A stretch of 64,000 bases of DNA from a virus. Shown here piece after piece: positions 4,041 to 32,529 of this stretch. A program made the translations under genes and the position numbers. Under the pieces are notes generated by a model. That model was not told the origin of the DNA. It did not search any database and was given only the letters and a program-made list of their open reading frames with translations. The stretch is from IMG/VR virus record IMGVR_UViG_3300025545_000003, positions 42,831 to 106,830 of that record; one strand, 5' to 3'. Each line of letters starts with the position of its first letter. Within the stretch, counting starts at the first letter, position 1.

Positions 4041-4249
4041 TCCTCTTCCTCTGCCACGTCGACGGTGATCTCCTTCTCAGGGACCAACTCCAACAGGTCT
4101 TCCGCAATATCGCCGATCAGGTCAGCGTTCTCTGCCAGTTGTACCCGCTGAACCACGACGGTCTCTTCCGTCCCTGCGGTAGCGGCCTTCAACAAGGCCG
4201 AGAACTCTTTGAGGAGTGAGATCCTCTTGGCAAGCGCACGCTGGTTCAT
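4037..4249 (-). CDS. Hypothetical protein
   Basis: ORF coupled to upstream gene; acidic tail. Confidence 0.55.
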   Translation of the reverse strand: MNQRALAKRISLLKEFSALLKAATAGTEETVVVQRVQLAENADLIGDIAEDLLELVPEKEITVDVAEEED

Positions 4250-5200: not shown

Positions 5201-5541
5201 GGTTTCTCCCTTGGGTGTTCCTCAACGACCACCCCGATGACAGACCCGCAGTAGGATGAGAACACACGCTTGACGTCGCCGTTCCCGAACTGCATCAGGC
5301 CGTCCTTCAGGAAGATGGCAGGGCCCTGGTAGTGGGTGTCTTGGACGTAGCAGACGGAGGATTGCTCGAACCAGTCTACCCGAGGGTGGCTGGCGAACCG
5401 GACACGCAGGGTCTCCCCGGTGTTCGGGTGTTGGATAGTGGCCCACACATCCTCATCTGCCCGGAGCGCTCGTACCTTGTCCTGCGGCAGGGGGAAACAC
5501 TGAGGTTTCTTGTGTCTCTTGTCGTGTCCGGGTTTGGGCAT
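5197..5541 (-). CDS. Hypothetical protein
   Basis: ORF in operon with overlapping stop/start. Confidence 0.5.
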   Translation of the reverse strand: MPKPGHDKRHKKPQCFPLPQDKVRALRADEDVWATIQHPNTGETLRVRFASHPRVDWFEQSSVCYVQDTHYQGPAIFLKDGLMQFGNGDVKRVFSSYCGSVIGVVVEEHPREKP

Positions 5542-13390: not shown

Positions 13391-14802
13391 TACTCCAGCC
13401 CCTTGAGGTTGGCGACCGGGAACAGGCGCAGGGTCATCTTGGCGATGCCCTCGTCCTCCAACACCCGGAGCACAGCGTTGAGATCCTTGTAGGCGTGGCC
13501 GCACTCGTCCAGCGGCGTCCGCTCCGAGTTCATGACGATGCCCTCGACGATGGTTCCGTCCGCGCAGACGACACGGGCGTCCCGCATCTCCTCGTCGATC
13601 TCATCGTGGATTGCCCGAAGCTCACGCTTGGCCTCCCCACGTCCCATGAGCCGTCCGGCCCCGTGGTTGACGGAGCAGCCCGTCTTCCTCGTCCCGGAGA
13701 GCGGGAACAGGATCGCAGCCCCGTCCTTCATGGAACCGGGGATCAAGCACGGGTGGCCCGTCTCAGCCCACTTCGTGCGGGCGAGATCCGGGTGTCCAGC
13801 CGGGAAGGCACGGGTCGCCCCCTTGCGGTGAACGAAGCCCTCCGTCAGCGAACCGTCCGGCAGGTAGATGCGCTCCTGCTGGATCAGGTTGTGGCTGATC
13901 TCGTACAGGGTCTCAGACTCAGCCCCTCCGAACACCGTCGCCGTGGCGTCCGCCAGCCCTCTGGCTATGACGTGCCTGTTGGCGATGGCGTAGTTGGCCG
14001 CCGAGTTGTGGTGCGCCCAATACTCCTTCCCGAGATCCTCGTCCATGCGGAGGTAGGACTCCTCCCGTCGCTTGGACTGGAGGCACCGCAATCGGGCACC
14101 CTCGTAGAAGTAGTGGTTGGCCGTGTGCCACCCGTACCCACGGGAGCCGCAGTGCAGCATCAGCCAGACAGAGGAGTCCGTCGGGTCTACCTGCATCTCG
14201 ATGAAGTGGTTCCCACCACCGAGGGATCCCATCTGCGGGACGGCCTTCGGCCACGCCCGGTCGATGCGGTTGGCCTTGAAGTGCGCCGTGTCCACACGCA
14301 TGAAGACACGCTCGCACTCGTCCGCCGTGACACCCACCGGCTCTCCGCCGTGGGCAAGCATCTCCTGCACGTCCGTCCACCCGTAGGTCGGCATCTTGAC
14401 CGGACGGTGCGAACCGAGGCCCGTGGCTACACGCTCCTCAACCGCATGAATCCACTCCAGCCGCTTGGCCGGATCGACGATGTCCGCCGCCTTGAGGCTC
14501 GTCTTCATGTAGAGGACGCCGCACGAGATGTCGTAGCCGGAGCCTGACTGGACCAGCGTGTCGTCGGTCACGATGACGCTGCCGATGGGAACCCCGAACC
14601 CGAAGTGGGTGTCCGGCATCAGGAAGGCGTGAGTCACACCCTTGTAGGATGCGGCCTGTACAGCCTGTGCCCAGAGCCCCTCTTCGGTGGCCTCCCATAG
14701 TTCCTTGGTGAGGAAAGCTGTGACGTCGCACCGCATCCCGGCCCGTGCGGGCAGGACACAGCAGTTGTCAGTCAGCCAGTGGATGTCGTACTTGTGAGAC
14801 AT
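13390..14802 (-). CDS. rtcB: RtcB RNA ligase
   Basis: PDTHFG, GYDISCG, SLGGGNHFIE, HCGSRG, HRKGAT, PGSM, HGAGR, YKD. Confidence 0.96.
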   Translation of the reverse strand: MSHKYDIHWLTDNCCVLPARAGMRCDVTAFLTKELWEATEEGLWAQAVQAASYKGVTHAFLMPDTHFGFGVPIGSVIVTDDTLVQSGSGYDISCGVLYMKTSLKAADIVDPAKRLEWIHAVEERVATGLGSHRPVKMPTYGWTDVQEMLAHGGEPVGVTADECERVFMRVDTAHFKANRIDRAWPKAVPQMGSLGGGNHFIEMQVDPTDSSVWLMLHCGSRGYGWHTANHYFYEGARLRCLQSKRREESYLRMDEDLGKEYWAHHNSAANYAIANRHVIARGLADATATVFGGAESETLYEISHNLIQQERIYLPDGSLTEGFVHRKGATRAFPAGHPDLARTKWAETGHPCLIPGSMKDGAAILFPLSGTRKTGCSVNHGAGRLMGRGEAKRELRAIHDEIDEEMRDARVVCADGTIVEGIVMNSERTPLDECGHAYKDLNAVLRVLEDEGIAKMTLRLFPVANLKGLE

Positions 14803-23877: not shown

Positions 23878-24148
23878 GTTCCCGATGAACAAGTTCCCCA
23901 AGCTCTCTCAGGCCGAACTGATGATGGGGCTGCGGAACTGGGAGGATCTGGACGGGGCCGCCTACCTGTTGGGCAGGTCGATGGGGATGTTTGATCCCGA
24001 CGCCAGCTTCCAGACCGACCTGAAGTGGGTCTTCTGGTCCGCCAACCCGACCGGCGACTTCCTGTACCACATGATCTGTGGCCTTGTTGCGATGGGGATC
24101 TGGGAGCAGGACGAGGAAGGGGACAAGGTACGGTGGCACCATGACTGA
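23870..24148 (+). CDS. Hypothetical protein
   Basis: Overlapping operon ORF. Confidence 0.55.
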   Translation: MLEFPMNKFPKLSQAELMMGLRNWEDLDGAAYLLGRSMGMFDPDASFQTDLKWVFWSANPTGDFLYHMICGLVAMGIWEQDEEGDKVRWHHD

Positions 24149-24554
24149 TCGAGGCTGGCCGAAACAGATCATCATCCTCCGCACCGACCTCGGCATGCGG
24201 AAGGGCAAGATGGTCGCACAGGGAGCGCACGCCTCCTTGGGCGGGATTCTGGATCACTGCACAGAGGTCGGGGACGGCACCTTCGTGATCGGCCCCGGAC
24301 ACACAGGGTGGAATTGGGAAGCCGTCAAGCTGTGGCTCTCCGGCAAGTTCACCAAGATCGTGGTCGGGGTGGAGACCGAGCAGGAACTCCTCGACCTATA
24401 CGGTACGGCCCTGCGGGCCGGGATCGCCTGTTTCCTCTGCACCGACGCCGGGGACACTGAGTTCCACGGCGTACCTACGAACACTGCGGTCTGCATCGGG
24501 CCGGATTTTCCAGACGTGATCGACCCTATCACCGGCCACTTGAGGCTCCTCTAA
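24141..24554 (+). CDS. pth2: Peptidyl-tRNA hydrolase, Pth2 type
   Basis: RTDLGMRKGKMVAQGAHAS, KIVV, DAGDTE, IGP, ITGHLRLL. Confidence 0.93.
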   Translation: MTDRGWPKQIIILRTDLGMRKGKMVAQGAHASLGGILDHCTEVGDGTFVIGPGHTGWNWEAVKLWLSGKFTKIVVGVETEQELLDLYGTALRAGIACFLCTDAGDTEFHGVPTNTAVCIGPDFPDVIDPITGHLRLL

Positions 24555-24558
24555 CGAG

Positions 24559-24586
24559 GAAAGCCGGACATCGCTGTCCGGCTTTC
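24559..24586. terminator. Hairpin between convergent pth2 and ssrA
   Basis: GAAAGCCGGACA-TCGC-TGTCCGGCTTTC. Confidence 0.7.
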
Positions 24587-24593
24587 AAGCACT

Positions 24594-24959
24594 TGGTGGA
24601 GGTGCGGGGAATCGAACCCCGGTCCTAAGATGCCTACGCCAACGCACTACGCTCATTTCCCGTGTTTATCCCGCACGGGCAAGGTGCTTCGATCCTCAAC
24701 GCACATGCTGCTGTTAGTCATCGCCTTCAGGTAGCCGCCTGCCCGCTATCCTGAACGCCAACCCGTTTCTGCTGTAACCTCACGCCCCGAATCGGGTGCT
24801 CTGACGTGAGAATGAAGCACCAGCACAGTCTTTCGACTACGCTGCCGCCTGCATCGGAAGGGTCTCGTTGGCAATTAAGCCTTTGCCGTCTGTAACGCCC
24901 GACAGCACTCGGAACGAACGTTTAGCCTCGTACACCCCAGTCGAAACCAGTACACCCCC
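24594..24959 (-). ncRNA. ssrA: tmRNA; tag peptide (A)ANETLPMQAAA
   Basis: 5' GGGGGTGTACTGGTTTCGAC; 3' GGTTCGATTCCCCGCACCTCCACCA with G3-U pair; tag frame 24872-24837 after TTAATT. Confidence 0.95.
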
Positions 24960-24993
24960 AAGTTTTCAAAGAACAGCGTGTCCTTCTATACCA

Positions 24994-25021
24994 TCAACCC
25001 AATAGAAGGATCCTCTAAGCC
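24994..25021 (-). promoter_or_regulatory. GGCTTAG-N15-GGTTGA promoter of ssrA; boxA-like GTTCTTTGAAAA lies downstream at 24963-24974
   Basis: Motif match. Confidence 0.65.
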
Positions 25022-25079
25022 TACTTCGTGTAGGTGCATGGCGTAGGCTCACGGGGTAGAGTGGATGAGGAGGACGCAC

Positions 25080-26078
25080 ATGAAGATCACATGCTTCGGT
25101 TCCCGAGGTTCGCTTCCGGCCCCGTCCCGTAAGGACTTCAGCACCGTGGAGTTTGGCGGCAACACCAACTGCTTCTTCATCGAGGCAGGGCCTTTCAAGA
25201 TCATCGTCGGGTGCGGTTCTGGGGTTTCCATCCTGGGGGACGAACTGATGAAGCGTTGGGTGGAACAGGAGTTCCCCCATCAGCACTTCATCGTCCTGTT
25301 GACGCACTACCACTGGGACCACATCCAAGGGCTCCCGTTCTGCACCCCGTTCTACTTGGCCCACAACACGTTCCACTTCCACGGTCTCCGGCCTTCCGGT
25401 CACGAGGGCGGGGAACGGCTGGCGGACGGCTCGCACCCCAAGACGGTCGTGGAGACGATGCTGTCCCATCAGCAGTCCAACCCGCACTTCCCGGTGGCCC
25501 ACGAGTCTCTCCCGGCCCACAAGGAGTACCAGAGCCATGACCGCCAGTTCAGCGAGGCGTTCTGGTACGCCCACGAATGGCACAGGGGTCAGGAGCAAGA
25601 CGAGGCCACCCTGTTCCCCCACGGCCCCAGTACGGTGGGCGACAGGCCCGTTGGCGGCCCGGAGAACTGGATCAAGATCACGACCGTCCCGCTGGAGCAC
25701 CCGAACGGCTGCCTCGGCTGGGTCATCGAGTACGAGGGCAAGAAGGCGGCGTTCTGCTACGACATGGAACCCTTGCGGTTCCCGAACCAGAAGGTCTCCA
25801 AGCTGGGCCACAACGCCGACCTGATGGTTCTGGACGGTGCCTACACGGAGCAGCAGCTTCAGGGCATGCAGCAAGGCTTCGGCCACGGTTCCCCTGAATC
25901 CTGCATCGAACAGGCCAAGGACTCCGACGCCAAGTTCTGCCTCATCCACCACCACGACCCCAAGCACGACGACGACAAGCTCCGGGAGATGGAAGCCCAC
26001 GCACAGGACTATGCCCTTGGGGCGATGTTCCGGGGCCGGGTCGACTTCGCCCGTGAAGGCAACGTCTACGATCTCTGA
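25080..26078 (+). CDS. Metallo-beta-lactamase-fold hydrolase (RNase Z/PhnP-like)
   Basis: GSRGS, GGNT, THYHWDHIQG, HP, GHG, HHDP. Confidence 0.88.
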   Translation: MKITCFGSRGSLPAPSRKDFSTVEFGGNTNCFFIEAGPFKIIVGCGSGVSILGDELMKRWVEQEFPHQHFIVLLTHYHWDHIQGLPFCTPFYLAHNTFHFHGLRPSGHEGGERLADGSHPKTVVETMLSHQQSNPHFPVAHESLPAHKEYQSHDRQFSEAFWYAHEWHRGQEQDEATLFPHGPSTVGDRPVGGPENWIKITTVPLEHPNGCLGWVIEYEGKKAAFCYDMEPLRFPNQKVSKLGHNADLMVLDGAYTEQQLQGMQQGFGHGSPESCIEQAKDSDAKFCLIHHHDPKHDDDKLREMEAHAQDYALGAMFRGRVDFAREGNVYDL

Positions 26079-26615
26079 TCCCCTCACTTTTTAGAGGTTC
26101 ACCACCATCACCACCACAACTACGGCAACACCTACGGCAACCCGTGGGGCACCCGCAGCCTCCTGGGTAGTAACAACACCCTCAGTAGCCACAGCCGCAG
26201 CCGTAGCGCCTCCAAGGGCATCGGCAGCGCCACGAAGGGTGCAGGCGGCCAGTCCGTAGACTACGGGTGTAACACCATCGGTGAGAGGAGCATGGACTTC
26301 GTCGAGGACAGCCTCTGCTCCACCGAGTGTTCGGTGGCAGCGGCGTCGGCCAGCTTCGAGGACGAGGCACCCAGCAGGGGCATCCTCCGGGACGTCGGCA
26401 CGAAGTACGGCCACGAGGTCTCTTTCCACACGACCGAGACCACGTTCACCAAGGCCACGGACGCCCCGGTACTCGTCTGCACGCTGCGCTACGCCACCCG
26501 TGAGCGGCTGGAGACGTGGGGCGTGCCCCTCAAGCCCAAGTCGGGACCGGAAGCGCCCCAGGCGTTCCCTGCGTCCATGGACGGTTGCCCCGCCCCGAGC
26601 GGCTGGAACGGATAA
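26079..26615 (+). pseudogene. Open frame with His6 run and no upstream start; probable 5'-truncated gene (internal ATG 26292)
   Basis: Frame continues directly from the MBL TGA: SPHFLEVHHHHHHNYG... Confidence 0.5.
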
Positions 26616-26668
26616 TCCCATCCTTCTCCCTCTTGCCCCCGGTACAATGGGGGTAGGAGGGAGCCCAC

Positions 26669-26992
26669 ATGTCCAAGTTCACCGTCGACTGTTTCACCGA
26701 GAAGTCACTCCCGGAGCCGGGGTTCCCTGAGAACACCTACGAGGCGGCCACCGTGCTGGAGGCTGCGGCTGTTGTCCATAACTGCACCCGCAAGCAGGCC
26801 GGGATCAGGATGGTTCAGATCTGGATCGAAGAGCCGGACGACCGAGAGGCCGTCGACACGCTCAAGACGTGCCGGTGTGGGACGAAGGGATGCGATACAA
26901 AGCGCATTGACCCTGACGAGGTAGCGAAGGCGCTGGGGGCGGAGAAGGCCGTGAAGCCGAAGAACCTGCCCCGCAGGCCGGGGACACGGTAG
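26669..26992 (+). CDS. Hypothetical protein
   Basis: AGGAGG RBS. Confidence 0.6.
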   Translation: MSKFTVDCFTEKSLPEPGFPENTYEAATVLEAAAVVHNCTRKQAGIRMVQIWIEEPDDREAVDTLKTCRCGTKGCDTKRIDPDEVAKALGAEKAVKPKNLPRRPGTR

Positions 26993-27079
26993 GCGGAAGC
27001 GGAGGGAGTCGAACCCTCAAGGCCGTAAAGCTCGCCTGTTTTCAAGACAGGTGCCGTCGCCACGTCGGCTGGCGCTTCC
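26992..27079 (-). tRNA. tRNA-Ser(TGA)
   Basis: CCTGT-CTTGAAA-ACAGG; long variable arm; G73. Confidence 0.92.
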
Positions 27080-27101
27080 AAGTTGAACAGTAGGTCTTCG
27101 T

Positions 27102-27192
27102 TGGCGGAAGGAGGGGGAGTCGAACCCCCAAGGCGCTCATCACGCTCGACCACTTTCCAAGCGGCTGCCATCACCAATTGGCTTGCCCTTCC
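27102..27192 (-). tRNA. tRNA-Ser(GGA)
   Basis: GCCGC-TTGGAAA-GTGGT; GCCA end. Confidence 0.92.
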
Positions 27193-27196
27193 AAAG

Positions 27197-27283
27197 TGCG
27201 ACCGGAGGGATTCGAACCCTCACGCCAGTCATTGTTGACACTGGCCCCTCAAGCCAGCGCGTCTACCATTCCGCCACGGTCGC
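27197..27283 (-). tRNA. tRNA-Leu(GAG)
   Basis: CTGGC-TTGAGGG-GCCAG. Confidence 0.92.
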
Positions 27284-27288
27284 ATGAG

Positions 27289-27370
27289 TGCTGCCGGTGG
27301 GACTCGAACCCACACACCTCAAGGGCACGGGCCTCTCAGACCCGCATGTCTACCATTCCATCACGACAGC
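27289..27370 (-). tRNA. tRNA-Leu(GAG), second copy
   Basis: CGGGT-CTGAGAG-GCCCG. Confidence 0.9.
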
Positions 27371-27377
27371 ATAGAAA

Positions 27378-27492
27378 GCACCCCAGCACGTAGGGAACCA
27401 CGGGTTGGTTACCGCTGGCCGCCCACTCCTCCCAGAAGTGCTGCTTCTCTGTGGTCTTGGACACCCCTGATCTACAGCCCCGGCTGGGGTGC
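27378..27492. ncRNA. Unidentified structured RNA (~115 nt)
   Basis: Perfect 10-bp terminal helix GCACCCCAGC/GCTGGGGTGC filling the gap between two tRNAs. Confidence 0.5.
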
Positions 27493-27495
27493 CTT

Positions 27496-27585
27496 TGGCG
27501 GAAGGACGGGGAGTCGAACCCCGAAGGCCGGTTAAGGCTCGCTGGTTTTCGAAACCAGTGCAGTCGCCCATCTGCTTGCCCTTCC
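27496..27585 (-). tRNA. tRNA-Ser(CGA)
   Basis: CTGGT-TTCGAAA-ACCAG; GCCA end. Confidence 0.92.
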
Positions 27586-27586
27586 A

Positions 27587-27662
27587 TGGAGCGCTCGCCC
27601 GGACTTGAACCGGGGACCACCGGCTTCGGAGGCCGGGACTCTATCCACTGAGCTACGAGCGC
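27587..27662 (-). tRNA. tRNA-Arg(CCG)
   Basis: CCGGC-CTCCGAA-GCCGG; CCA end. Confidence 0.93.
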
Positions 27663-27665
27663 AAA

Positions 27666-27818
27666 GGTGGGGGAGGTAGGAATCGAACCTACAATGCCCT
27701 CTCGGGCGGTCTGCTTTACAGGCAGATGTCTATACCTTGCTGAAGTCGCAACAGAGTTCCCGACCGGGGTCAGGATAAGGTCGTCACAACGAGTAGCGTG
27801 ACTTTTGACCACTCCCCC
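27666..27818 (-). tRNA. tRNA-Tyr(GTA) with ~65-nt insertion in the D-loop
   Basis: GGGGGAG/CTCCCCC-A; TCTGC-CTGTAAA-GCAGA; 76 nt between D-stem strands GTC/GAC. Confidence 0.8.
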
Positions 27819-27822
27819 ATAG

Positions 27823-27895
27823 AGCCAACGACGGGAATCGAACCCGTAACCCCTTGCTTACCATGCAAGTGCTCTACCGTTGGAGCTACGTTGGC
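27823..27895 (-). tRNA. tRNA-Thr(GGT)
   Basis: CTTGC-ATGGTAA-GCAAG. Confidence 0.92.
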
Positions 27896-27913
27896 ATGCT
27901 TGAATCAGACAAG

Positions 27914-27985
27914 AGCCCAGTACCGGAGTCGAACCGATGTCAGCGGGTTACAAATCCGCTGCTCTGCCACTTGAGCTAACTGGGC
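27914..27985 (-). tRNA. tRNA-Thr(TGT)
   Basis: GCGGA-TTTGTAA-CCCGC. Confidence 0.9.
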
Positions 27986-28018
27986 AAATCAGGTGCTCTA
28001 CCGTTGAGCCACGCTAGC
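27986..28018 (-). pseudogene. 5' half of a tRNA (Thr-like) truncated in the anticodon loop
   Basis: GCTAGCGTGGCTCAACGGTAGAGCACCTGATTT abuts the next tRNA. Confidence 0.75.
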
Positions 28019-28022
28019 AAAG

Positions 28023-28094
28023 AGCCGAAGGTCGGAATCGAACCGACAACCTGCCGCTTACGAAACGGCTGCTCTACCATTGAGCTACATCGGC
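28023..28094 (-). tRNA. tRNA-Thr(CGT)
   Basis: GCCGT-TTCGTAA-GCGGC. Confidence 0.92.
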
Positions 28095-28149
28095 AAAGTG
28101 CGACCGGGGGGAGTCGAACCCCCACGCCTCAAAGGCACCGGATTCTAAG

Positions 28150-28229
28150 TGGCTGAGGTGGGAGTCGAACCCACACGCCCTAAGCGCCCGCCTCTAAAAC
28201 GGGTGCGTCTACCGTTCCGCCACTCAGCC
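28150..28229 (-). tRNA. tRNA-Leu(TAG), nested replacement copy
   Basis: GGCTGAG/CTCAGCC; CCCGT-TTTAGAG-GCGGG. Confidence 0.92.
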
Positions 28230-28724
28230 TTTTTCTTGTTTGGTCACGGAGGTCAACCCTTTGCTATTACACCACCCAGGTTGTTGGGAGTGGCAGTTAG
28301 GGCACAGGAATCGTAAGTTTTCAGGGCGGTTGTCTAACCAGTCTCGGTTGATGTGGTCCACCTGTAGCATGAGGGGTTTCCCGACCCACACTCCCTCGAT
28401 CCCACAAGATTCGCACGCATAGGGCCGCCCACTGTCAAGGAGAGCCCTCCGTAAGCGGTACGCTGCGGTACGCCTCCCTGTGTCCTTCTTTGACAGGGTA
28501 GTTAGCCACGGAGTCTTTCCCGGGCCTCCCTTATGGGCTGTTCCCTTGTTGGATCCTTGACCGTGGAAATGGACTGTGTCGAGTCCGTATTCCCGTACCT
28601 TACGGGTGATGTGCGTTTGTGTCCCGCCCGCCTGTTTCACCCCCAAATCTCGAAGCACGCCCGCCATGGAAGTGTTCTGTTGAACAAGTGGGGCTAGGAT
28701 CTCTTTTGTGTAACGTCGTCCCAT
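28224..28724 (-). CDS. HNH homing endonuclease
   Basis: CESCG...LQVDHIN...DNRPENLRFLCPNCHS. Confidence 0.92.
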   Translation of the reverse strand: MGRRYTKEILAPLVQQNTSMAGVLRDLGVKQAGGTQTHITRKVREYGLDTVHFHGQGSNKGTAHKGGPGKTPWLTTLSKKDTGRRTAAYRLRRALLDSGRPYACESCGIEGVWVGKPLMLQVDHINRDWLDNRPENLRFLCPNCHSQQPGWCNSKGLTSVTKQEKG

Positions 28725-28791
28725 ACACAGCTTACGGTATAGGCTAGCAACCGGAACCGGCGTGTCTACCGTTTCACCACGGTCGCAAAGG

Positions 28792-29635
28792 ATGACCACC
28801 CGTAGCCGGGATCCTGTTTTATGGACACATTCATCTAGTGGCCCCTACCCGTCCGCATAGCGCTGCTCACCCGCTCTTGGCCCAACCCCGATGCCGAGAG
28901 CGTTGCCCTGAAAAGAGCTTCTGCATTCCTTGGCGTGTAAGGCCGTGACGTTGGCAGAACAGATTGAGGGACGGGGTCACTTCGTGTTCAGCCCCGTCAG
29001 GAGAACGGACTTTGGGGTAGGGCTGCTTCTTCTTAGTGCGGCTGATCGCCGCCTTTTCCGCTTCCGTTGGGGAAGCCTTCCGACCACCCGATCCCACAGC
29101 GTTCTTATTGCCCCGCTGCAAAAGTGACAGGGCTTGCTTCGTTTCTTCTGTATGCTTGTAACCCAGGCTGTTGCCTGCTTCTGGGAGGATGTTGTACTTC
29201 TTGGCTTTCGGGGTCTTGTCCAACCACTCCTGTTCCTTCTCCAAGAGCTTGTCGTGGGCCGCCTGAACAAGCACAAAGAAGCAAATGTCCTCTTCACCCC
29301 TCTTGGCAAAGGCTCGTTGTAAGGGGGTGTTATGGTGGGTGCCTTTTCGAAGAAGCCTCCCATGTGCTGAGAACCTCTTGTAGAGATCCACTGCGGACCC
29401 GATGTAGAGCTTCCCCGAAGCCCTACTTCTGATGGCATAGACACCGCTCTTACCGTGTAGCGCAGAATAAGGGGTACCTTTCATGGAAGGGTCCAATTTC
29501 ATAGGCCAAAGATACCACGTTCCTGTTTGGGTTGCACCCTCGGAAGTGCGAACGGCCTACGGCCTCCTTCCTTCAGCAGTGGTGTCCCGAGCTTCCTCAC
29601 ATCCCTTGCGGGGTAGTGCGTGCCCTCAGTGGTCA
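28792..29635 (-). ncRNA. rnpB: Minimal RNase P RNA (~210 nt) interrupted by a GIY-YIG ORF
   Basis: GAGGAAGCTCGGGA (CR-I) pairs with ACAGGATCCCGGCTA (CR-V) as P4 with bulged U; P1 TGACCAC/GTGGTCA; P2 GGGCACG/TGTGTCC; AGATGAATG; GGGTAGG L15. Confidence 0.85.
28867..29502 (-). CDS. GIY-YIG homing endonuclease with NUMOD3-like motif (start may be 29484)
   Basis: SGVYAI...LYIGSA...R...E...YN; SLGYKHTEETK. Confidence 0.92.
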   Translation of the reverse strand: MKLDPSMKGTPYSALHGKSGVYAIRSRASGKLYIGSAVDLYKRFSAHGRLLRKGTHHNTPLQRAFAKRGEEDICFFVLVQAAHDKLLEKEQEWLDKTPKAKKYNILPEAGNSLGYKHTEETKQALSLLQRGNKNAVGSGGRKASPTEAEKAAISRTKKKQPYPKVRSPDGAEHEVTPSLNLFCQRHGLTRQGMQKLFSGQRSRHRGWAKSG

Positions 29636-29720
29636 TGGTGCCAGAGGGGGGACTCGAACCCCCACGCCTCAAGGACAGACGGTTTTGAACCGACCGCGTC
29701 TACCATTCCGCCACTCTGGC
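29636..29720 (-). tRNA. tRNA-Leu(CAA)
   Basis: GTCGG-TTCAAAA-CCGTC; ACCA end. Confidence 0.92.
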
Positions 29721-29728
29721 AAGTAAGT

Positions 29729-29817
29729 TGGTGGAGGAGGTGGGATTCGAACCCACTCACCGCAACGCGGACCAGATTTACAGTCTGGCGTGACTCTCCA
29801 ACTTCAACCGCTCCTCC
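29729..29817 (-). tRNA. tRNA-Tyr(GTA)
   Basis: CCAGA-CTGTAAA-TCTGG; ACCA end; atypical D arm. Confidence 0.88.
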
Positions 29818-29821
29818 AAAG

Positions 29822-29893
29822 TGGAAAGGGGTGGAATCGAACCACCGACACGGGGATTTTCAGTCCCCTGCTCTACCTCTGAGCTACCCCTCC
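29822..29893 (-). tRNA. tRNA-Phe(GAA)
   Basis: GGGGA-CTGAAAA-TCCCC. Confidence 0.93.
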
Positions 29894-30294
29894 ATGCGTT
29901 TCCAGTCCCCGAACTCCTCCTTGCCGCCCCTGCACCCCCAGTCCGAGTCGATGACCAGGCGGGACGAGATCCCGCCACGGGGCCGGAGGTCCGCTACGAG
30001 GCGCAACCGGGCCGGTTCATAGACCGCCACGAGATCCTCGTAGATGACGTTGATGAGGCGTTCGTAGGAGATCACCTTGGACCTGAAGGCCACCACGTAC
30101 TCCTTGAGTGCCTTCAGTTCGATGATCCAGTCCGCCGGGTAGAAGACCAACGTCAGGTGACCGAAGTCCGGTTGCTGTTTGACGCCCATGAACGTCAACT
30201 CCGGGATCTCCATCCTGATCTCGTACCCGTCTGGGTCGGGGTTCGGCAGCCTCTTCAGCTTGTCCTTCTCCGACCACTTGTCATGCTTGCCCAT
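29884..30294 (-). CDS. QueF-like T-fold protein lacking the catalytic Cys
   Basis: PELT...QPDF...ELKALK-x-Y...FR...SYE...PRGGI; no Cys at the EFTSLCP position. Confidence 0.85.
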   Translation of the reverse strand: MGKHDKWSEKDKLKRLPNPDPDGYEIRMEIPELTFMGVKQQPDFGHLTLVFYPADWIIELKALKEYVVAFRSKVISYERLINVIYEDLVAVYEPARLRLVADLRPRGGISSRLVIDSDWGCRGGKEEFGDWKRMEG

Positions 30295-30333
30295 GTCGTT
30301 CCCCCTTGTTGTCCGGGGAACTATACCGATCAG

Positions 30334-30407
30334 TGCCAAGGGGCGGGATCGAACCGCCGACACCCCGGATTTCACCCGAGTGCTCTACCTACCTGAGCTA
30401 CCTTGGC
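30334..30407 (-). tRNA. tRNA-Phe(GAA), second copy
   Basis: CTCGG-GTGAAAT-CCGGG. Confidence 0.88.
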
Positions 30408-30411
30408 AGAA

Positions 30412-30485
30412 GGCAGAGGTAGTGGGAATCGAACCCACCCGACGGTCGGTTTTGGAGACCAACCCGCTTACCCAGAGCCACCTCT
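30412..30485 (-). tRNA. tRNA-Trp(CCA)
   Basis: TTGGT-CTCCAAA-ACCGA; G73; short D arm. Confidence 0.85.
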
Positions 30486-30519
30486 ACAAGAATGTGCGGG
30501 GAATCGAACCGGGGCTTTG

Positions 30520-30975
30520 CTAGCGAATGAACTTGAGGGCTTGGGCGTTGACCATCTTCAGGATGTCACGGGGGGACATGGAGGCGAAGGAGGTCATCGA
30601 CATGGAGTGCGTGCTGGTTTCCTCGTCCTCGATCCCCTTTTCCTCTACATAGACGAACACCCACCACTGTACCTGGTTGCGTTGGAAGTCGGGGGTGAAG
30701 TACGCGATGACGTGGTCCTCACCCGGAGTCGAGGACTGGCTGGGGGAGGGGAGATTCGGGAAAGCGATCTCCACAGTCATCCCCTTCCTGTAAATCTCGC
30801 CCACATGGTCGGCCTGCGTGGCCTTGCCGACCTTCTTCATCCACTGGAAGAATGCCTTGTGGAACAGACCGATAAGGTCACCCGTTGCCGCCTCTTTCCG
30901 CAGAAGGGGCAGGATGTGCTTGCGGGTTTCAGGTACTTCATGGGCCAGTCTGACCAGTTCGCTTTTAAGATCCAT
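30520..30975 (-). CDS. Hypothetical, possibly virion-internal protein
   Basis: AGGAGG RBS; N-terminus LKSELVRLAHEVPETRKHILPLLRKEA. Confidence 0.65.
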   Translation of the reverse strand: MDLKSELVRLAHEVPETRKHILPLLRKEAATGDLIGLFHKAFFQWMKKVGKATQADHVGEIYRKGMTVEIAFPNLPSPSQSSTPGEDHVIAYFTPDFQRNQVQWWVFVYVEEKGIEDEETSTHSMSMTSFASMSPRDILKMVNAQALKFIR

Positions 30976-31017
30976 GGGGTCCTCCTGTGTCCCTAATGGA
31001 ACCTTATAGCCCAAGTA

Positions 31018-31102
31018 GGTGCCAGAGGGGGGACTCGAACCCCCACGCCTCAAGGATATCCGGGCTTAAACCGGATGCGGCTACCAGTTACGCCATCCCG
31101 GC
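31018..31102 (-). tRNA. tRNA-Leu(TAA)
   Basis: TCCGG-TTTAAGC-CCGGA; 3' half identical to that of Leu(CAA). Confidence 0.85.
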
Positions 31103-31111
31103 GTATGAAAG

Positions 31112-31197
31112 TGGATGATCAAGGAATCGAACCTTGCTGCCGCGTCAGCGGACCGGGGTTACAGCCCAGCGCAAGCACCAGCTTGACCGTATCATCC
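31112..31197 (-). tRNA. tRNA-Tyr(GTA) with atypical D arm
   Basis: GGATGAT/ATCATCC-A; CTGGG-CTGTAAC-CCCGG; D arm CAAGC-TGGT-GCTTG. Confidence 0.8.
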
Positions 31198-31200
31198 AGA

Positions 31201-31289
31201 GGCGGAGGGAGAGGGAGTCGAACCCTCAAGGCCGATTAAGGCTCGTCCGGTTAGCAACCGGGTGCAGTCACCGATCTGCTTGCCCCTCC
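31201..31289 (-). tRNA. tRNA-Ser(GCT)
   Basis: CCCGG-TTGCTAA-CCGGA. Confidence 0.92.
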
Positions 31290-31301
31290 GTGAATTGGAC
31301 C

Positions 31302-31410
31302 GGGTCGCTCTTATCGTCTTCCTGGGGCGTTGCCACCCCGCAGACGTTTATCCACGACCAACCGCTGTACAAGCGGCTGCGCTATCCCCCGAGGGGGAGC
31401 CCAACGACCC
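31302..31410 (-). ncRNA. Unidentified four-arm structured RNA (~110 nt)
   Basis: GGGTCGTT/AGCGACCC closing helix with three internal hairpins, one GNRA-capped. Confidence 0.55.
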
Positions 31411-31414
31411 AAAG

Positions 31415-31497
31415 TGCTGCTGAAAGGAGTCGAACCTTCACGCCCCGAAGGACACTTGGACCTGAACCAAGCGCGTCTACCATTCCGCCACAGCAGC
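31415..31497 (-). tRNA. tRNA-Leu(CAG)
   Basis: CTTGG-TTCAGGT-CCAAG. Confidence 0.93.
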
Positions 31498-31551
31498 AAA
31501 GAACGGTGCTGGAAGCTGGGCAACTCCCAGCACCGAAGACCTACTATTCAA

Positions 31552-31590
31552 TTGTCAAAGACCCTCTGGCCGCCGCCCTGTGGCAGAGGC
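31552..31590 (-). promoter_or_regulatory. boxB-like hairpin plus boxA-like GTCTTTGACAA
   Basis: Resembles rrn-leader Nus antitermination signals; lies between the terminator and the first tRNA. Confidence 0.6.
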
Positions 31591-31599
31591 CCTAAACGC

Positions 31600-31633
31600 A
31601 AAAAGCCCGCTCCGGGTGTGTCCGGGCGGGCTT
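31600..31633 (-). terminator. Attenuator (intrinsic terminator) of the tRNA operon leader
   Basis: AAGCCCGC-CCGG-loop-CCGG-A-GCGGGC-TTTTT. Confidence 0.85.
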
Positions 31634-31655
31634 CCAAGGTCAGCAGATGTTGTGC

Positions 31656-31754
31656 TTACCCCGTTACACCCTCCGGCGCACTCGTGGACAGATACGACCA
31701 GCCGGTAAGGCTGACGTGCGTCCGCAAGCTGAAGGTTGTAAATAAGGTCTGCAT
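31656..31754 (-). CDS. Leader peptide MQTLFTTFSLRTHVSLTGWSYLSTSAPEGVTG
   Basis: AGGAGAG RBS, 32 codons, stop 22 nt before the terminator; too short for the ORF track. Confidence 0.8.
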   Translation of the reverse strand: MQTLFTTFSLRTHVSLTGWSYLSTSAPEGVTG

Positions 31755-31778
31755 CTCGGTCTCTCCTGTTCGCCCCTG

Positions 31779-31807
31779 ACGCTAGAGGCCCTTTGGGCTC
31801 CTGTCAA
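31779..31807 (-). promoter_or_regulatory. Sigma70-type promoter TTGACA-N17-TAGCGT; a GGCTTAG motif lies upstream at 31850-31877
   Basis: Consensus -35, 17-bp spacer. Confidence 0.75.
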
Positions 31808-31929
31808 GGCTTTTCTCACGAAGATCCCCACAGGGGGGCTTCACGTCCGTCCACACAGAACAGGAAGGGCCTAAGCCCCTTGCCGGTAGATTCGTTATGA
31901 GGCTACTCCAGTAGGACATGGAGGCCCGC

Positions 31930-32529
31930 ATGAGCAAGCACACGAACCGGGTAGCAGCCCGGTATATTAAGAGAGCCGCCAGCGAAGACCGCAAACAGTT
32001 CGACATGGGCGTCAAGGCCATCGGGACATCGCTCCTGCGGATGAAGGACGTGGTCTTCCTCTGGACAGGGAGGGGAACACCCCCTCCGGGACACGGGGCA
32101 GAGGGCTACGAGTCCCTGGCTGACGTGTACGGCCCTGTGCAGCATGTCGTGAACAAGATCGAGGACCTTGAGAAAGCCTACATCAGCCTCAAGCGTGTTC
32201 GTGTGGCCTCCAAGCGGATGGACCCCAAGTTCAAGCGGGCCGTCATTCCGTTGTTCAAGCGGGCAGGCCTGGATGGCAACGGGCGGTTCAGGAAGCCCCA
32301 ACACGGGTACTCCAAGGCGTTGGACATCCTCGCCAAGTTCGAGATCGAACTGGACGACGTCGTGTCGTCCCACCTGTTCAACGGGGACAGCGGGACGATC
32401 CGGGCGGACCTGGCCTATTCGAACTCAGAGGACCCGTTCTCCCCTGAGTCGATTTCCAACTCGGTGCTGGTCATTTCGTTCACTAAGATGGCCAAGGACA
32501 GCTATGAGGTGCTGGCGTATCTGTCATGA
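31930..32529 (+). CDS. Hypothetical, possibly virion protein
   Basis: GGAGG RBS; N-terminal RVAARY motif. Confidence 0.65.
   Translation: MSKHTNRVAARYIKRAASEDRKQFDMGVKAIGTSLLRMKDVVFLWTGRGTPPPGHGAEGYESLADVYGPVQHVVNKIEDLEKAYISLKRVRVASKRMDPKFKRAVIPLFKRAGLDGNGRFRKPQHGYSKALDILAKFEIELDDVVSSHLFNGDSGTIRADLAYSNSEDPFSPESISNSVLVISFTKMAKDSYEVLAYLS

Follow-up and report, generated by a model that had tools for sequence, protein, structure and literature searches.

Multivalent attenuators, in which one leader peptide samples several amino acids, are known from enterobacteria in the ilvGMEDA operon (Ile, Val and Leu) and the thr operon (Thr and Ile), next to the leaders trpL, hisL, leuL and pheL. Phage tRNA genes have been debated for about fifty years, as a means of codon compensation or as replacements for tRNAs destroyed by host defences (PMC10264068, PMC11464382, PMC11555353); the work on counter-defence gives a rationale for them and no regulation of the attenuator kind. 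The nearest published system is the trn L-array of Anabaena sp. PCC 7120, a set of 26 tRNAs that stays silent until translation is impaired (PMC8421152) and is repressed by TrcR, which binds the promoter on direct repeats over the -10 box (PMC10272220). Here we analyse a stretch of 64,000 nucleotides of viral DNA (the window), which is the right-hand 64 kb of the 106,830-bp IMG/VR record IMGVR_UViG_3300025545_000003. On its minus strand, a leader unit lies directly in front of an array of tRNA genes. We read it, with a probability of about 0.7, as a multivalent, ribosome-mediated leader-peptide attenuator that gates the phage tRNA operon and provides feedback on decoding capacity.

The completeness of the record is estimated at about 20%, and the window is therefore a piece of a giant phage whose genome would measure roughly half a megabase. 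The phage was detected in seawater metagenomes from 17 studies, and the GC content of its DNA is about 60%.

All parts of the unit are on the minus strand. A promoter at 31779-31820 consists of an A-tract (GAGAAAAG), a -35 element TTGACA (31807-31802), a 17-nt spacer and a -10 element TAGCGT (31784-31779). It is preceded by a small GC hairpin (AGGGGCTTAGGCCCTT, 31865-31880). A Shine-Dalgarno-like AGGAGAG (31761-31767) is placed 6 nt ahead of the ATG at 31754, which opens a leader open reading frame (ORF) of 32 codons and a stop (31656-31754; peptide MQTLFTTFSLRTHVSLTGWSYLSTSAPEGVTG, by direct reading). Codons 2-25 form its putative sensing part, and the last seven codons or so are the G-rich proposed antiterminator strand (GCGCCGGAGGGTGTAACGGGG, 31660-31680). 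The intrinsic terminator (31594-31633) has a stem AAGCCCGCCCGG / CCGGAGCGGGCUU with an ACACAC loop, the hairpin spanning 31633-31603 and the U-tract TTTTTGCGTTT reaching 31594. It is separated by a hairpin (GCCTCTGCC...GGCCAGAGG, 31564-31590) from a putative rrn-type boxA-like element, GGTCTTTGACAATTGAATAGTA (31542-31563). A 14-bp hairpin at 31504-31535, possibly a processing element or a second terminator-like one, stands just 5' of the first tRNA, tRNA-Leu(CAG), which starts at 31497; analogous hairpins occur in relatives. The promoter was missed by a consensus scanner, its -10 element matching at only 3/6 positions, and the bulged terminator was likewise unlisted; both are conserved in relatives. 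No variants of the leader were found across the contigs of four marine runs.

The array behind the leader (26992-31497, minus strand) contains 20 tRNA or tRNA-like genes with 16 anticodons, as established with ARAGORN, Rfam and reading by eye. Its make-up is Leu x7, Ser x4, Thr x3, Phe x2, Tyr x3, Trp and Arg-CCG. ARAGORN alone gives 17 tRNAs; Rfam and relaxed ARAGORN settings add tRNA-Trp(CCA) at 30412-30486 and a second tRNA-Tyr(GTA) at 31113-31197. The last one, at 27666-27818, is tRNA-like: its acceptor and T arms are good and its variable arm is long, but about 60 nt are inserted behind the D region; we read its anticodon loop by eye as CUGUAAA, i.e. Tyr-GUA. The Gly-GCC call made for it in the intron mode of ARAGORN was treated as unreliable, as were two other intron-mode calls, Ser-CGA in L001 and Pyl-CTA in L069.

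The leader codons match this array beyond chance. Among codons 3-25, 20 of 23 specify Leu, Ser, Thr, Phe, Tyr, Trp or Arg. Under strict pairing the leader covers 14 of the 16 array anticodons, only CTA and TCA being missing, and all 16 once U34 wobble is allowed. Codons served by the array make up 68% of the leader (21/31) versus 28% of the long ORFs of the phage. We compared 112,010 windows of 31 codons free of stops, taken from all six frames of the contig: a coverage of 14 anticodons occurs in only 10, all overlapping the leader, and the next best value is 13. When the peptide is held fixed and synonymous codons are resampled, the observed choice is more diverse than phage usage predicts (P=0.005 strict, P=0.025 with wobble). 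The leader uses TTA, TTT, ACA, TAT and AGT, which represent 1-10% of their respective codon families in long ORFs (TTA being 1% of Leu codons).

A preliminary description of this locus, made from the letters of the window, had proposed a trp/his-type attenuator sampling the array tRNAs. The parts it named, from the promoter and ribosome-binding site through the 32-codon ORF, terminator, hairpin and boxA-like box to the array, were each found in place, and its array of 20 tRNAs with 16 anticodons was recovered. Its codon list, its counts of 20/23 and 14/16 and the absence of CTA and TCA were the same on recomputation; the rarity of the AT-rich codons is borne out by long-ORF usage. It had left room for a codon match no better than controls, and no other 31-codon frame in the 107-kb contig equals the leader.

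One competing account is coincidence, a short ORF that happens to lie between a promoter and a terminator and drew attention only afterwards. The leader was indeed picked post hoc from a 64-kb window, and Leu, Ser, Thr and Arg are common amino acids with many codons. We nevertheless regard coincidence as very improbable: the leader is unique among the 112,010 windows, the arrangement is repeated at a second array and in 16 further leaders, and leader codons covary with array content. The comparative data presented below already contradict it.

The contig carries a near-complete tRNA set spread over two arrays. The plus-strand array, mostly left of the window, holds His, Asn, Pro, Asp, Lys, Glu, Ile, Gly, Ala, Gln, Met, Cys, Arg and Val tRNAs and one Thr-CGT. 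The preliminary description had suggested looking 5' of this array, and a matched leader ORF is present there, in a paralogous unit at L001 4771-5139. The unit has an A-tract with TTGACA, a GGAGG site, an ORF of 52 codons (L001 4847-5005, plus strand; MLITTKNERRKRQAHGATLASKRDSLFAAVVNHQPAPAAIEGCDDPMGAPGE), a terminator and the box GGTCTTTGACAACTGAATAGTA; the same GGGCTTAGGCCC hairpin precedes its promoter as in the window. The two units align in the promoter block and in the box, and their ORFs do not align. The plus leader encodes K, N, E, R, Q, A, H, G, D, V, I, P, C and M; its array serves 44 of its 51 codons, and 23/28 anticodons are covered strictly, 26/28 with wobble. Codons served by one array only are divided between the two leaders as 17:10 versus 7:42 (2x2 test, P=2e-5).

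Relatives were retrieved from viral and metagenome contigs with alignments of two neighbouring genes, a divergent 203-aa protein (A2) and the adjacent chaperonin (A3). Other searches were less productive. Single-protein queries with the divergent 203-aa gene, the chaperonin or a NadD-like gene returned no relatives, and the exact boxA pattern had 0 matches across viral contigs. The leader-start pattern TTGTTTACNACCTWYAGY gave more than 119 matches, mostly random, of which only the L004 record itself lies near tRNAs; in the phage database, DNA matched at the tRNA level only, and the single protein match, a distant one in LR745208.1, has no tRNAs close by. Two of the genomes with syntenic loci are complete, G003 (536 kb) and G008 (436 kb).

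In 11 further records, an array of the L/S/T/F/Y/W type stands beside the chaperonin, each with a homologous ORF, a terminator and a boxA-like box (M-type leaders; example peptides MRTLFTTYSTRTDTSLTSWLSLSTCVPGVATG, MNRLFTTTSTTTLSLTWLSRSYLSERRPEVVSG and MFLFTTYSCCRIEELTWSLYLSERPGVS). Homologs of the plus leader (P-type) precede the His/Asn-type array in four genomes. The leaders are homologous. A-tract and TTGACA are kept 5' of all 17 that were examined, as are an ATG or GTG start, a purine-rich Shine-Dalgarno sequence and a stop 14-34 nt ahead of the terminator (17/17), over ORF lengths of 28-58 codons. The neighbouring chaperonins share only 42-48% identity among related records; the leader design has therefore been kept over deep divergence. 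One variation is seen in G008, where the terminator and boxA of the His/Asn-type array have an HNH ORF (L258:15667-15984, minus strand) inserted precisely between them, which parts attenuator from array.

M-type leaders are decodable at 50-83% by their own array, against 27-37% for the gene background, and rank in the top 0.01-0.2% of local six-frame windows, with the exception of G004 (1.8%). In the nine genomes with full arrays, they cover 16/16, 14/16, 18/18, 16/16, 11/13, 14/15, 16/16, 14/14 and 17/17 anticodons, coverage being complete in six of the nine. In all five genomes with both leaders, these split codons according to their own arrays (P=2e-5, 4e-5, 0.017, 1e-6 and 7e-6; pooled odds ratio 9.1); the leaders being homologous, these P values are not independent and combined values overstate independence. 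Between the window leader and that of L035, 14/31 codons differ non-synonymously, and replacements such as L>T, V>T, G>S, S>L and Y>S either remain within the array set or bring a codon into it. Taken across the family, leader composition has been maintained while the sequences changed. The leader ORFs of related phages are conserved and their codons vary with array content, which is what the preliminary description had expected of an attenuator of this type.

The RNA structures were analysed over the same family. The minimum free energy (MFE) of the window leader RNA is -77.2 kcal/mol (z=-3.0), with the terminator present in the MFE fold. In an alignment of 12 sequences, 90% of the cells of the terminator helix are paired and 6/10 pairs are compensatory, values that 0/500 shuffles reach. 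In 16/16 leaders, the 5' arm of the terminator can pair with the final 30 nt of the ORF (-12 to -27 kcal/mol), always more tightly than with a window from the ORF body; the pairing has z <= -1.3 against shuffles in 14/16 leaders. The antiterminator of L069 is a 15-pair duplex of -27 kcal/mol. Matched pairs of ORF end and terminator beat mismatched ones across genomes, much of this being due to a common CCGGAGG/CCUCCGG motif.

We also folded the leader with and without ribosome masking. When the A site is no further than about codon 20, the terminator's 5' arm is already paired upstream by the time its 3' arm is transcribed; a ribosome that has reached the stop codon abolishes this pairing, and the terminator forms. 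Without a ribosome, truncated folds still form the antiterminator, and in the full-length MFE the two halves of the ORF pair and the terminator forms. This ORF-half pairing is one candidate for a 1:2 anti-antiterminator. The other is a conserved hairpin inside the ORF, at 31690-31712 (minus strand) of the window and at homologous positions (consensus AGCCTTACSRGCTGG), which spans the Trp codon; around AGCCUUACCGGCU, it could be either an RNA polymerase pause hairpin or a 1:2 element.

These structures also admit an account without translation. The leader would then be a structured RNA only, such as a constitutive or factor-controlled terminator or insulator, a platform for tRNA-precursor processing or a T-box-like tRNA binder, and its reading frame would be incidental. 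The high structure of the leader (z=-3.0) fits this account, as do the hairpins and boxA placed after the terminator. Moreover, boxA or promoter is kept where there is no leader ORF: two more distant phages (L112 and L058) retain box and hairpin, and array B of G003 directly follows an RtcB gene. We consider it unlikely, slightly more so than the codon-independent explanation discussed below: the start, the Shine-Dalgarno sequence and the placing of the stop ahead of the terminator are retained by all 17 leaders despite their different lengths and deep divergence, and the codon match exists in the ORF frame only. A search of Rfam for T-box or any other cis-regulatory family gave no match at E<=1 in 24000-32200, and such an identity was rejected.

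For the ribosome-mediated attenuator, the following course of events is predicted from the sequences, including translation of the ORF, stalling and switching between two RNA structures. Host RNA polymerase would start at the TTGACA promoter and transcribe a 32-codon leader made mostly of codons read by the downstream tRNAs. If translation proceeds smoothly to the stop, the ribosome would cover the G-rich last codons, the terminator 22 nt further on would form and the array would be off. If scarcity, lack of charging or damage of any sampled tRNA stalls the ribosome earlier, the ORF end would stay free and pair with the 5' arm of the terminator; polymerase would then read through to boxA and transcribe the array. 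The outcome would be an OR-gated negative feedback holding about 16 tRNA species at need. The paralogous leader would act alike on the other array, so that the two leaders divide the genetic code.

A shortage might be triggered by the decay of host tRNAs after shut-off, by defence systems that cleave tRNAs or simply by the phage's own demand. The window encodes an RtcB RNA ligase (13399-14667, minus strand; Pfam E=1.7e-87), and a transfer-messenger RNA (tmRNA) gene lies downstream of the array on the same strand (24594-24959). Their presence fits a setting of tRNA damage without proving it.

Part of the preliminary description finds no support in this analysis. It had named host anticodon nucleases as the trigger; this is speculation, nothing in the sequence showing damage by them, and the data fit a general feedback on decoding capacity just as well. 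It had also spoken of an RNase P operon, and no RNase P RNA is matched by Rfam in 24000-32200 even at E<=1; downstream of the array is the tmRNA. Its core, an attenuator that samples the array tRNAs, is strongly supported by the second leader, the 16 further leaders, codon covariation, the covarying terminator and the complementarity of ORF end and terminator arm in the family. The folding comparison it suggested agrees with the model, a ribosome at the stop codon removing the upstream pairing and earlier stalls leaving it. The antiterminator it drew is weak in the window itself and stronger in relatives, 16/16 leaders of the family being able to pair, and its proposal that any sampled codon induces read-through fits stalls up to about codon 20, codons 22-25 being doubtful.

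Several observations weigh against an attenuator that samples tRNAs. The window antiterminator is the weakest of the set, with 8 interrupted pairs at -13 kcal/mol (z=+0.1, no better than shuffles), and in a fixed alignment register the antiterminator helix of the family is 77% paired versus 72.5% in shuffles (11/500). In a simple footprint model, stalls at codons 22-25 would not free the antiterminator, because a ribosome there already covers its strand. Classical attenuators use codon runs. Here each tRNA is sampled by just 1-3 codons without runs, so that a low sensitivity to mild shortage is to be expected. P-type leaders are barely enriched, being decodable at 58-86% against a gene background of 55-76% (that of G008 still covers 28/29 anticodons). 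CGG persists in the leaders of G001, G004 and G005, whose arrays lack Arg-CCG; the G004 leader fits its array poorly (16/25); and Ile-TAT in the G005 array has no ATA codon in the leader. The peptides share a motif, LFTT..SLTSW..YLS, which could mean that the peptide itself functions. In addition, tRNA annotation is imperfect and contig ends cut some arrays.

Some of these points favour a further explanation, in which translation controls the terminator and codon identity is irrelevant. The leader would gauge ribosome availability or coupling, or its product would act by itself, as a nascent arrest peptide or a small protein, and the resemblance to the array would be inherited composition. The shared motif together with the conserved internal hairpin, the CGG codon kept with or without Arg-CCG, the P-type leaders hardly above background and the few codons per tRNA all agree with it. 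If composition were simply inherited, the often radical replacements between the window and L035 would not be expected to remain within the array set, and paired leaders in five genomes would not partition their codons by array (P from 0.017 to 1e-6).

The test that distinguishes codon sampling from inherited composition is covariation with tRNAs outside the common core. Permutation shows that each M-type leader suits its own array better than it suits those of the eight other genomes (P=5e-5). For the non-core set (Arg-CCG/TCG/ACG, Glu-CTC/TTC, Cys-GCA, Gly-CCC and Ile-TAT), we counted strict cognates in the leader body, i.e. without the last seven codons. Where the tRNA is present, the cognate codon occurs in 14/15 cases; where it is absent, in 11/57 (Fisher P=2e-7; array permutation P=3e-4). 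The M array of G001 has Cys-GCA and two Glu-TTC, and its leader body reads TGC TGC ... GAA GAG. In G006, Arg-TCG, Arg-CCG and Arg-ACG are accompanied by CGA, CGG and CGC; in G002, Gly-CCC is accompanied by GGG, where relatives have GGC. P-type leaders show the same trend, being too few for significance (P=0.12): Thr-CGT goes with ACG ACG in this genome, Thr-TGT with ACA in G004 and Ser-TGA with two TCA in G007. With these data, and an unrelated leader of the same match in a Caulobacter phage, the codon-independent explanation seems improbable to us, if the least so of the alternatives.

That leader belongs to the cultured Caulobacter phage CcrRogue (L381), where two codon-matched leader ORFs with terminators precede two tRNA blocks (NC_019408.1, 49745-49882 and 51649-51744). 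A 31-codon ORF with QFVQIQVV and a terminator stand ahead of a Phe/Val/Ile/Gln/Arg array; gp349, 45 aa long, annotated as hypothetical and rich in L, S, T, K, A, P and H, stands with a terminator before a Pro/Thr/Lys/Leu/His/Ala array. CcrRogue belongs to an independent lineage and displays the same design with an unrelated leader sequence. It may then be a general principle that each phage tRNA array carries a leader ORF sampling nearly all its tRNAs, with any stall turning it on and a restored pool turning it off, that giant phages split the code over two leaders and that the design recurs with unrelated sequences in phiCbK-like Caulobacter phages; we hold this to be slightly better than an even bet.

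The box behind the terminator deserves a separate comment. Its form GGTCTTTGACAAYTGAATAG occurs only twice in the contig, once behind each leader terminator. A third match to the boxA core, at 1088-1097 of the window, lies inside an HNH-type ORF and was set aside as a chance match. More than 120 contigs from many bacterial phyla contain the 18-mer TCTTTGACAANTGAATAG; in 25/123 matches, 16S ribosomal RNA begins 52-474 nt downstream. The box is probably an rrn-type boxA, because the same 18-mer precedes 16S rRNA in bacteria. We infer that the phage may use host Nus-dependent antitermination to transcribe a long structured array past the regulated terminator.

Both arrays are broken up by homing-endonuclease ORFs (HNH and GIY-YIG). 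The minus-strand array is interrupted by HNH and GIY-YIG ORFs and one ORF of no known family: GIY-YIG plus NUMOD3 ORFs, HNH ORFs and the 151-aa family-less ORF are located at 28224-29502 and 30520-30975 (minus strand). The tmRNA, whose tag is ANETLPMQAAA, is located inside the homologous array in the relatives G001 and G002. The plus array contains a GOLLD RNA (Rfam RF02032, 154 bits, above the gathering score) at L001:6497-6937 (genome 33496-33936), in which tRNA-Thr(CGT) is embedded. At L001:14538-14625 (plus strand), also within this array, there is a match to the bacterial small signal recognition particle RNA of 33.6 bits, below the gathering score of 40.

Unusual tRNAs occur in the relatives. 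L004 has an 87-nt type II tRNA (5229-5315, minus strand) with the long variable arm of a Ser/Leu-like tRNA and a GCA (Cys) anticodon, and might serve in recoding or mischarging; this phage has a tandem TGC TGC in its leader. In the His/Asn-type array of G003, the intron mode of ARAGORN reports two intron-containing tRNAs of the ochre suppressor type (TTA) at L251:3741-3884 and 4063-4203 (minus strand), one of which coincides with a tRNA in Rfam. The RtcB gene of G003 (L250:12774-14180, minus strand, E=2.7e-89) is upstream of and co-oriented with its third, leaderless tRNA array.

If the reading is right, these would be the first known tRNA genes under ribosome-mediated attenuation, and, with 14-28 inputs, the most multivalent attenuator known. 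They would give direct evidence of a phage monitoring decoding capacity codon by codon, and an on-demand answer to tRNA loss from host shut-off or tRNA-cleaving defence. As the design exists in cultured Caulobacter phages, the control of phage tRNAs is accessible to concrete experiments. The leader would also be a compact natural sensor of tRNA availability, of potential use in synthetic biology. In the full-text literature, we found no paper that joins tRNA arrays or operons with leader peptides or attenuators, one apparent match naming a tRNA operon only in passing; the claim that no such attenuator had been described agrees with this search.

Among known systems, the Anabaena trn array is alike in being an accessory tRNA array turned on under translational trouble and associated with rtcB, as an RtcB gene is found in the window and in G003. 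It differs in its control by a promoter repressor and in being a cellular plasmid array; attenuator, leader and terminator are not mentioned in the paper. T-box riboswitches, which act on aminoacyl-tRNA synthetase genes, recognise uncharged tRNA by direct binding and need no translation; they do not control tRNA genes, nor does the pheM leader of pheST, which samples one amino acid. The boxA-type sequence ahead of structured RNA genes is shared with rrn boxA and Nus antitermination, and with the nut boxA of lambda; here it precedes phage tRNA arrays downstream of a regulated terminator, and NusB/NusE binding is putative. The enterobacterial attenuators have the same promoter-proximal short ORF and intrinsic terminator, and the alternative pairing of an ORF-distal strand with the terminator 5' arm that is proposed here; their regulatory codons also mirror what the operon supplies, and a ribosome stall would likewise favour read-through. 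They share no sequence homology with the leaders described here, in which the 1:2 anti-antiterminator is a candidate only and the terminator is followed by an rrn-type boxA. Finally, they regulate biosynthetic enzymes through codon runs for 1-3 amino acids, whereas here 14-28 tRNA species are sampled by 1-3 codons each in front of tRNA genes. Attenuation of this class is known; what appears to be new is its application to tRNA genes and the breadth of the sampled set.

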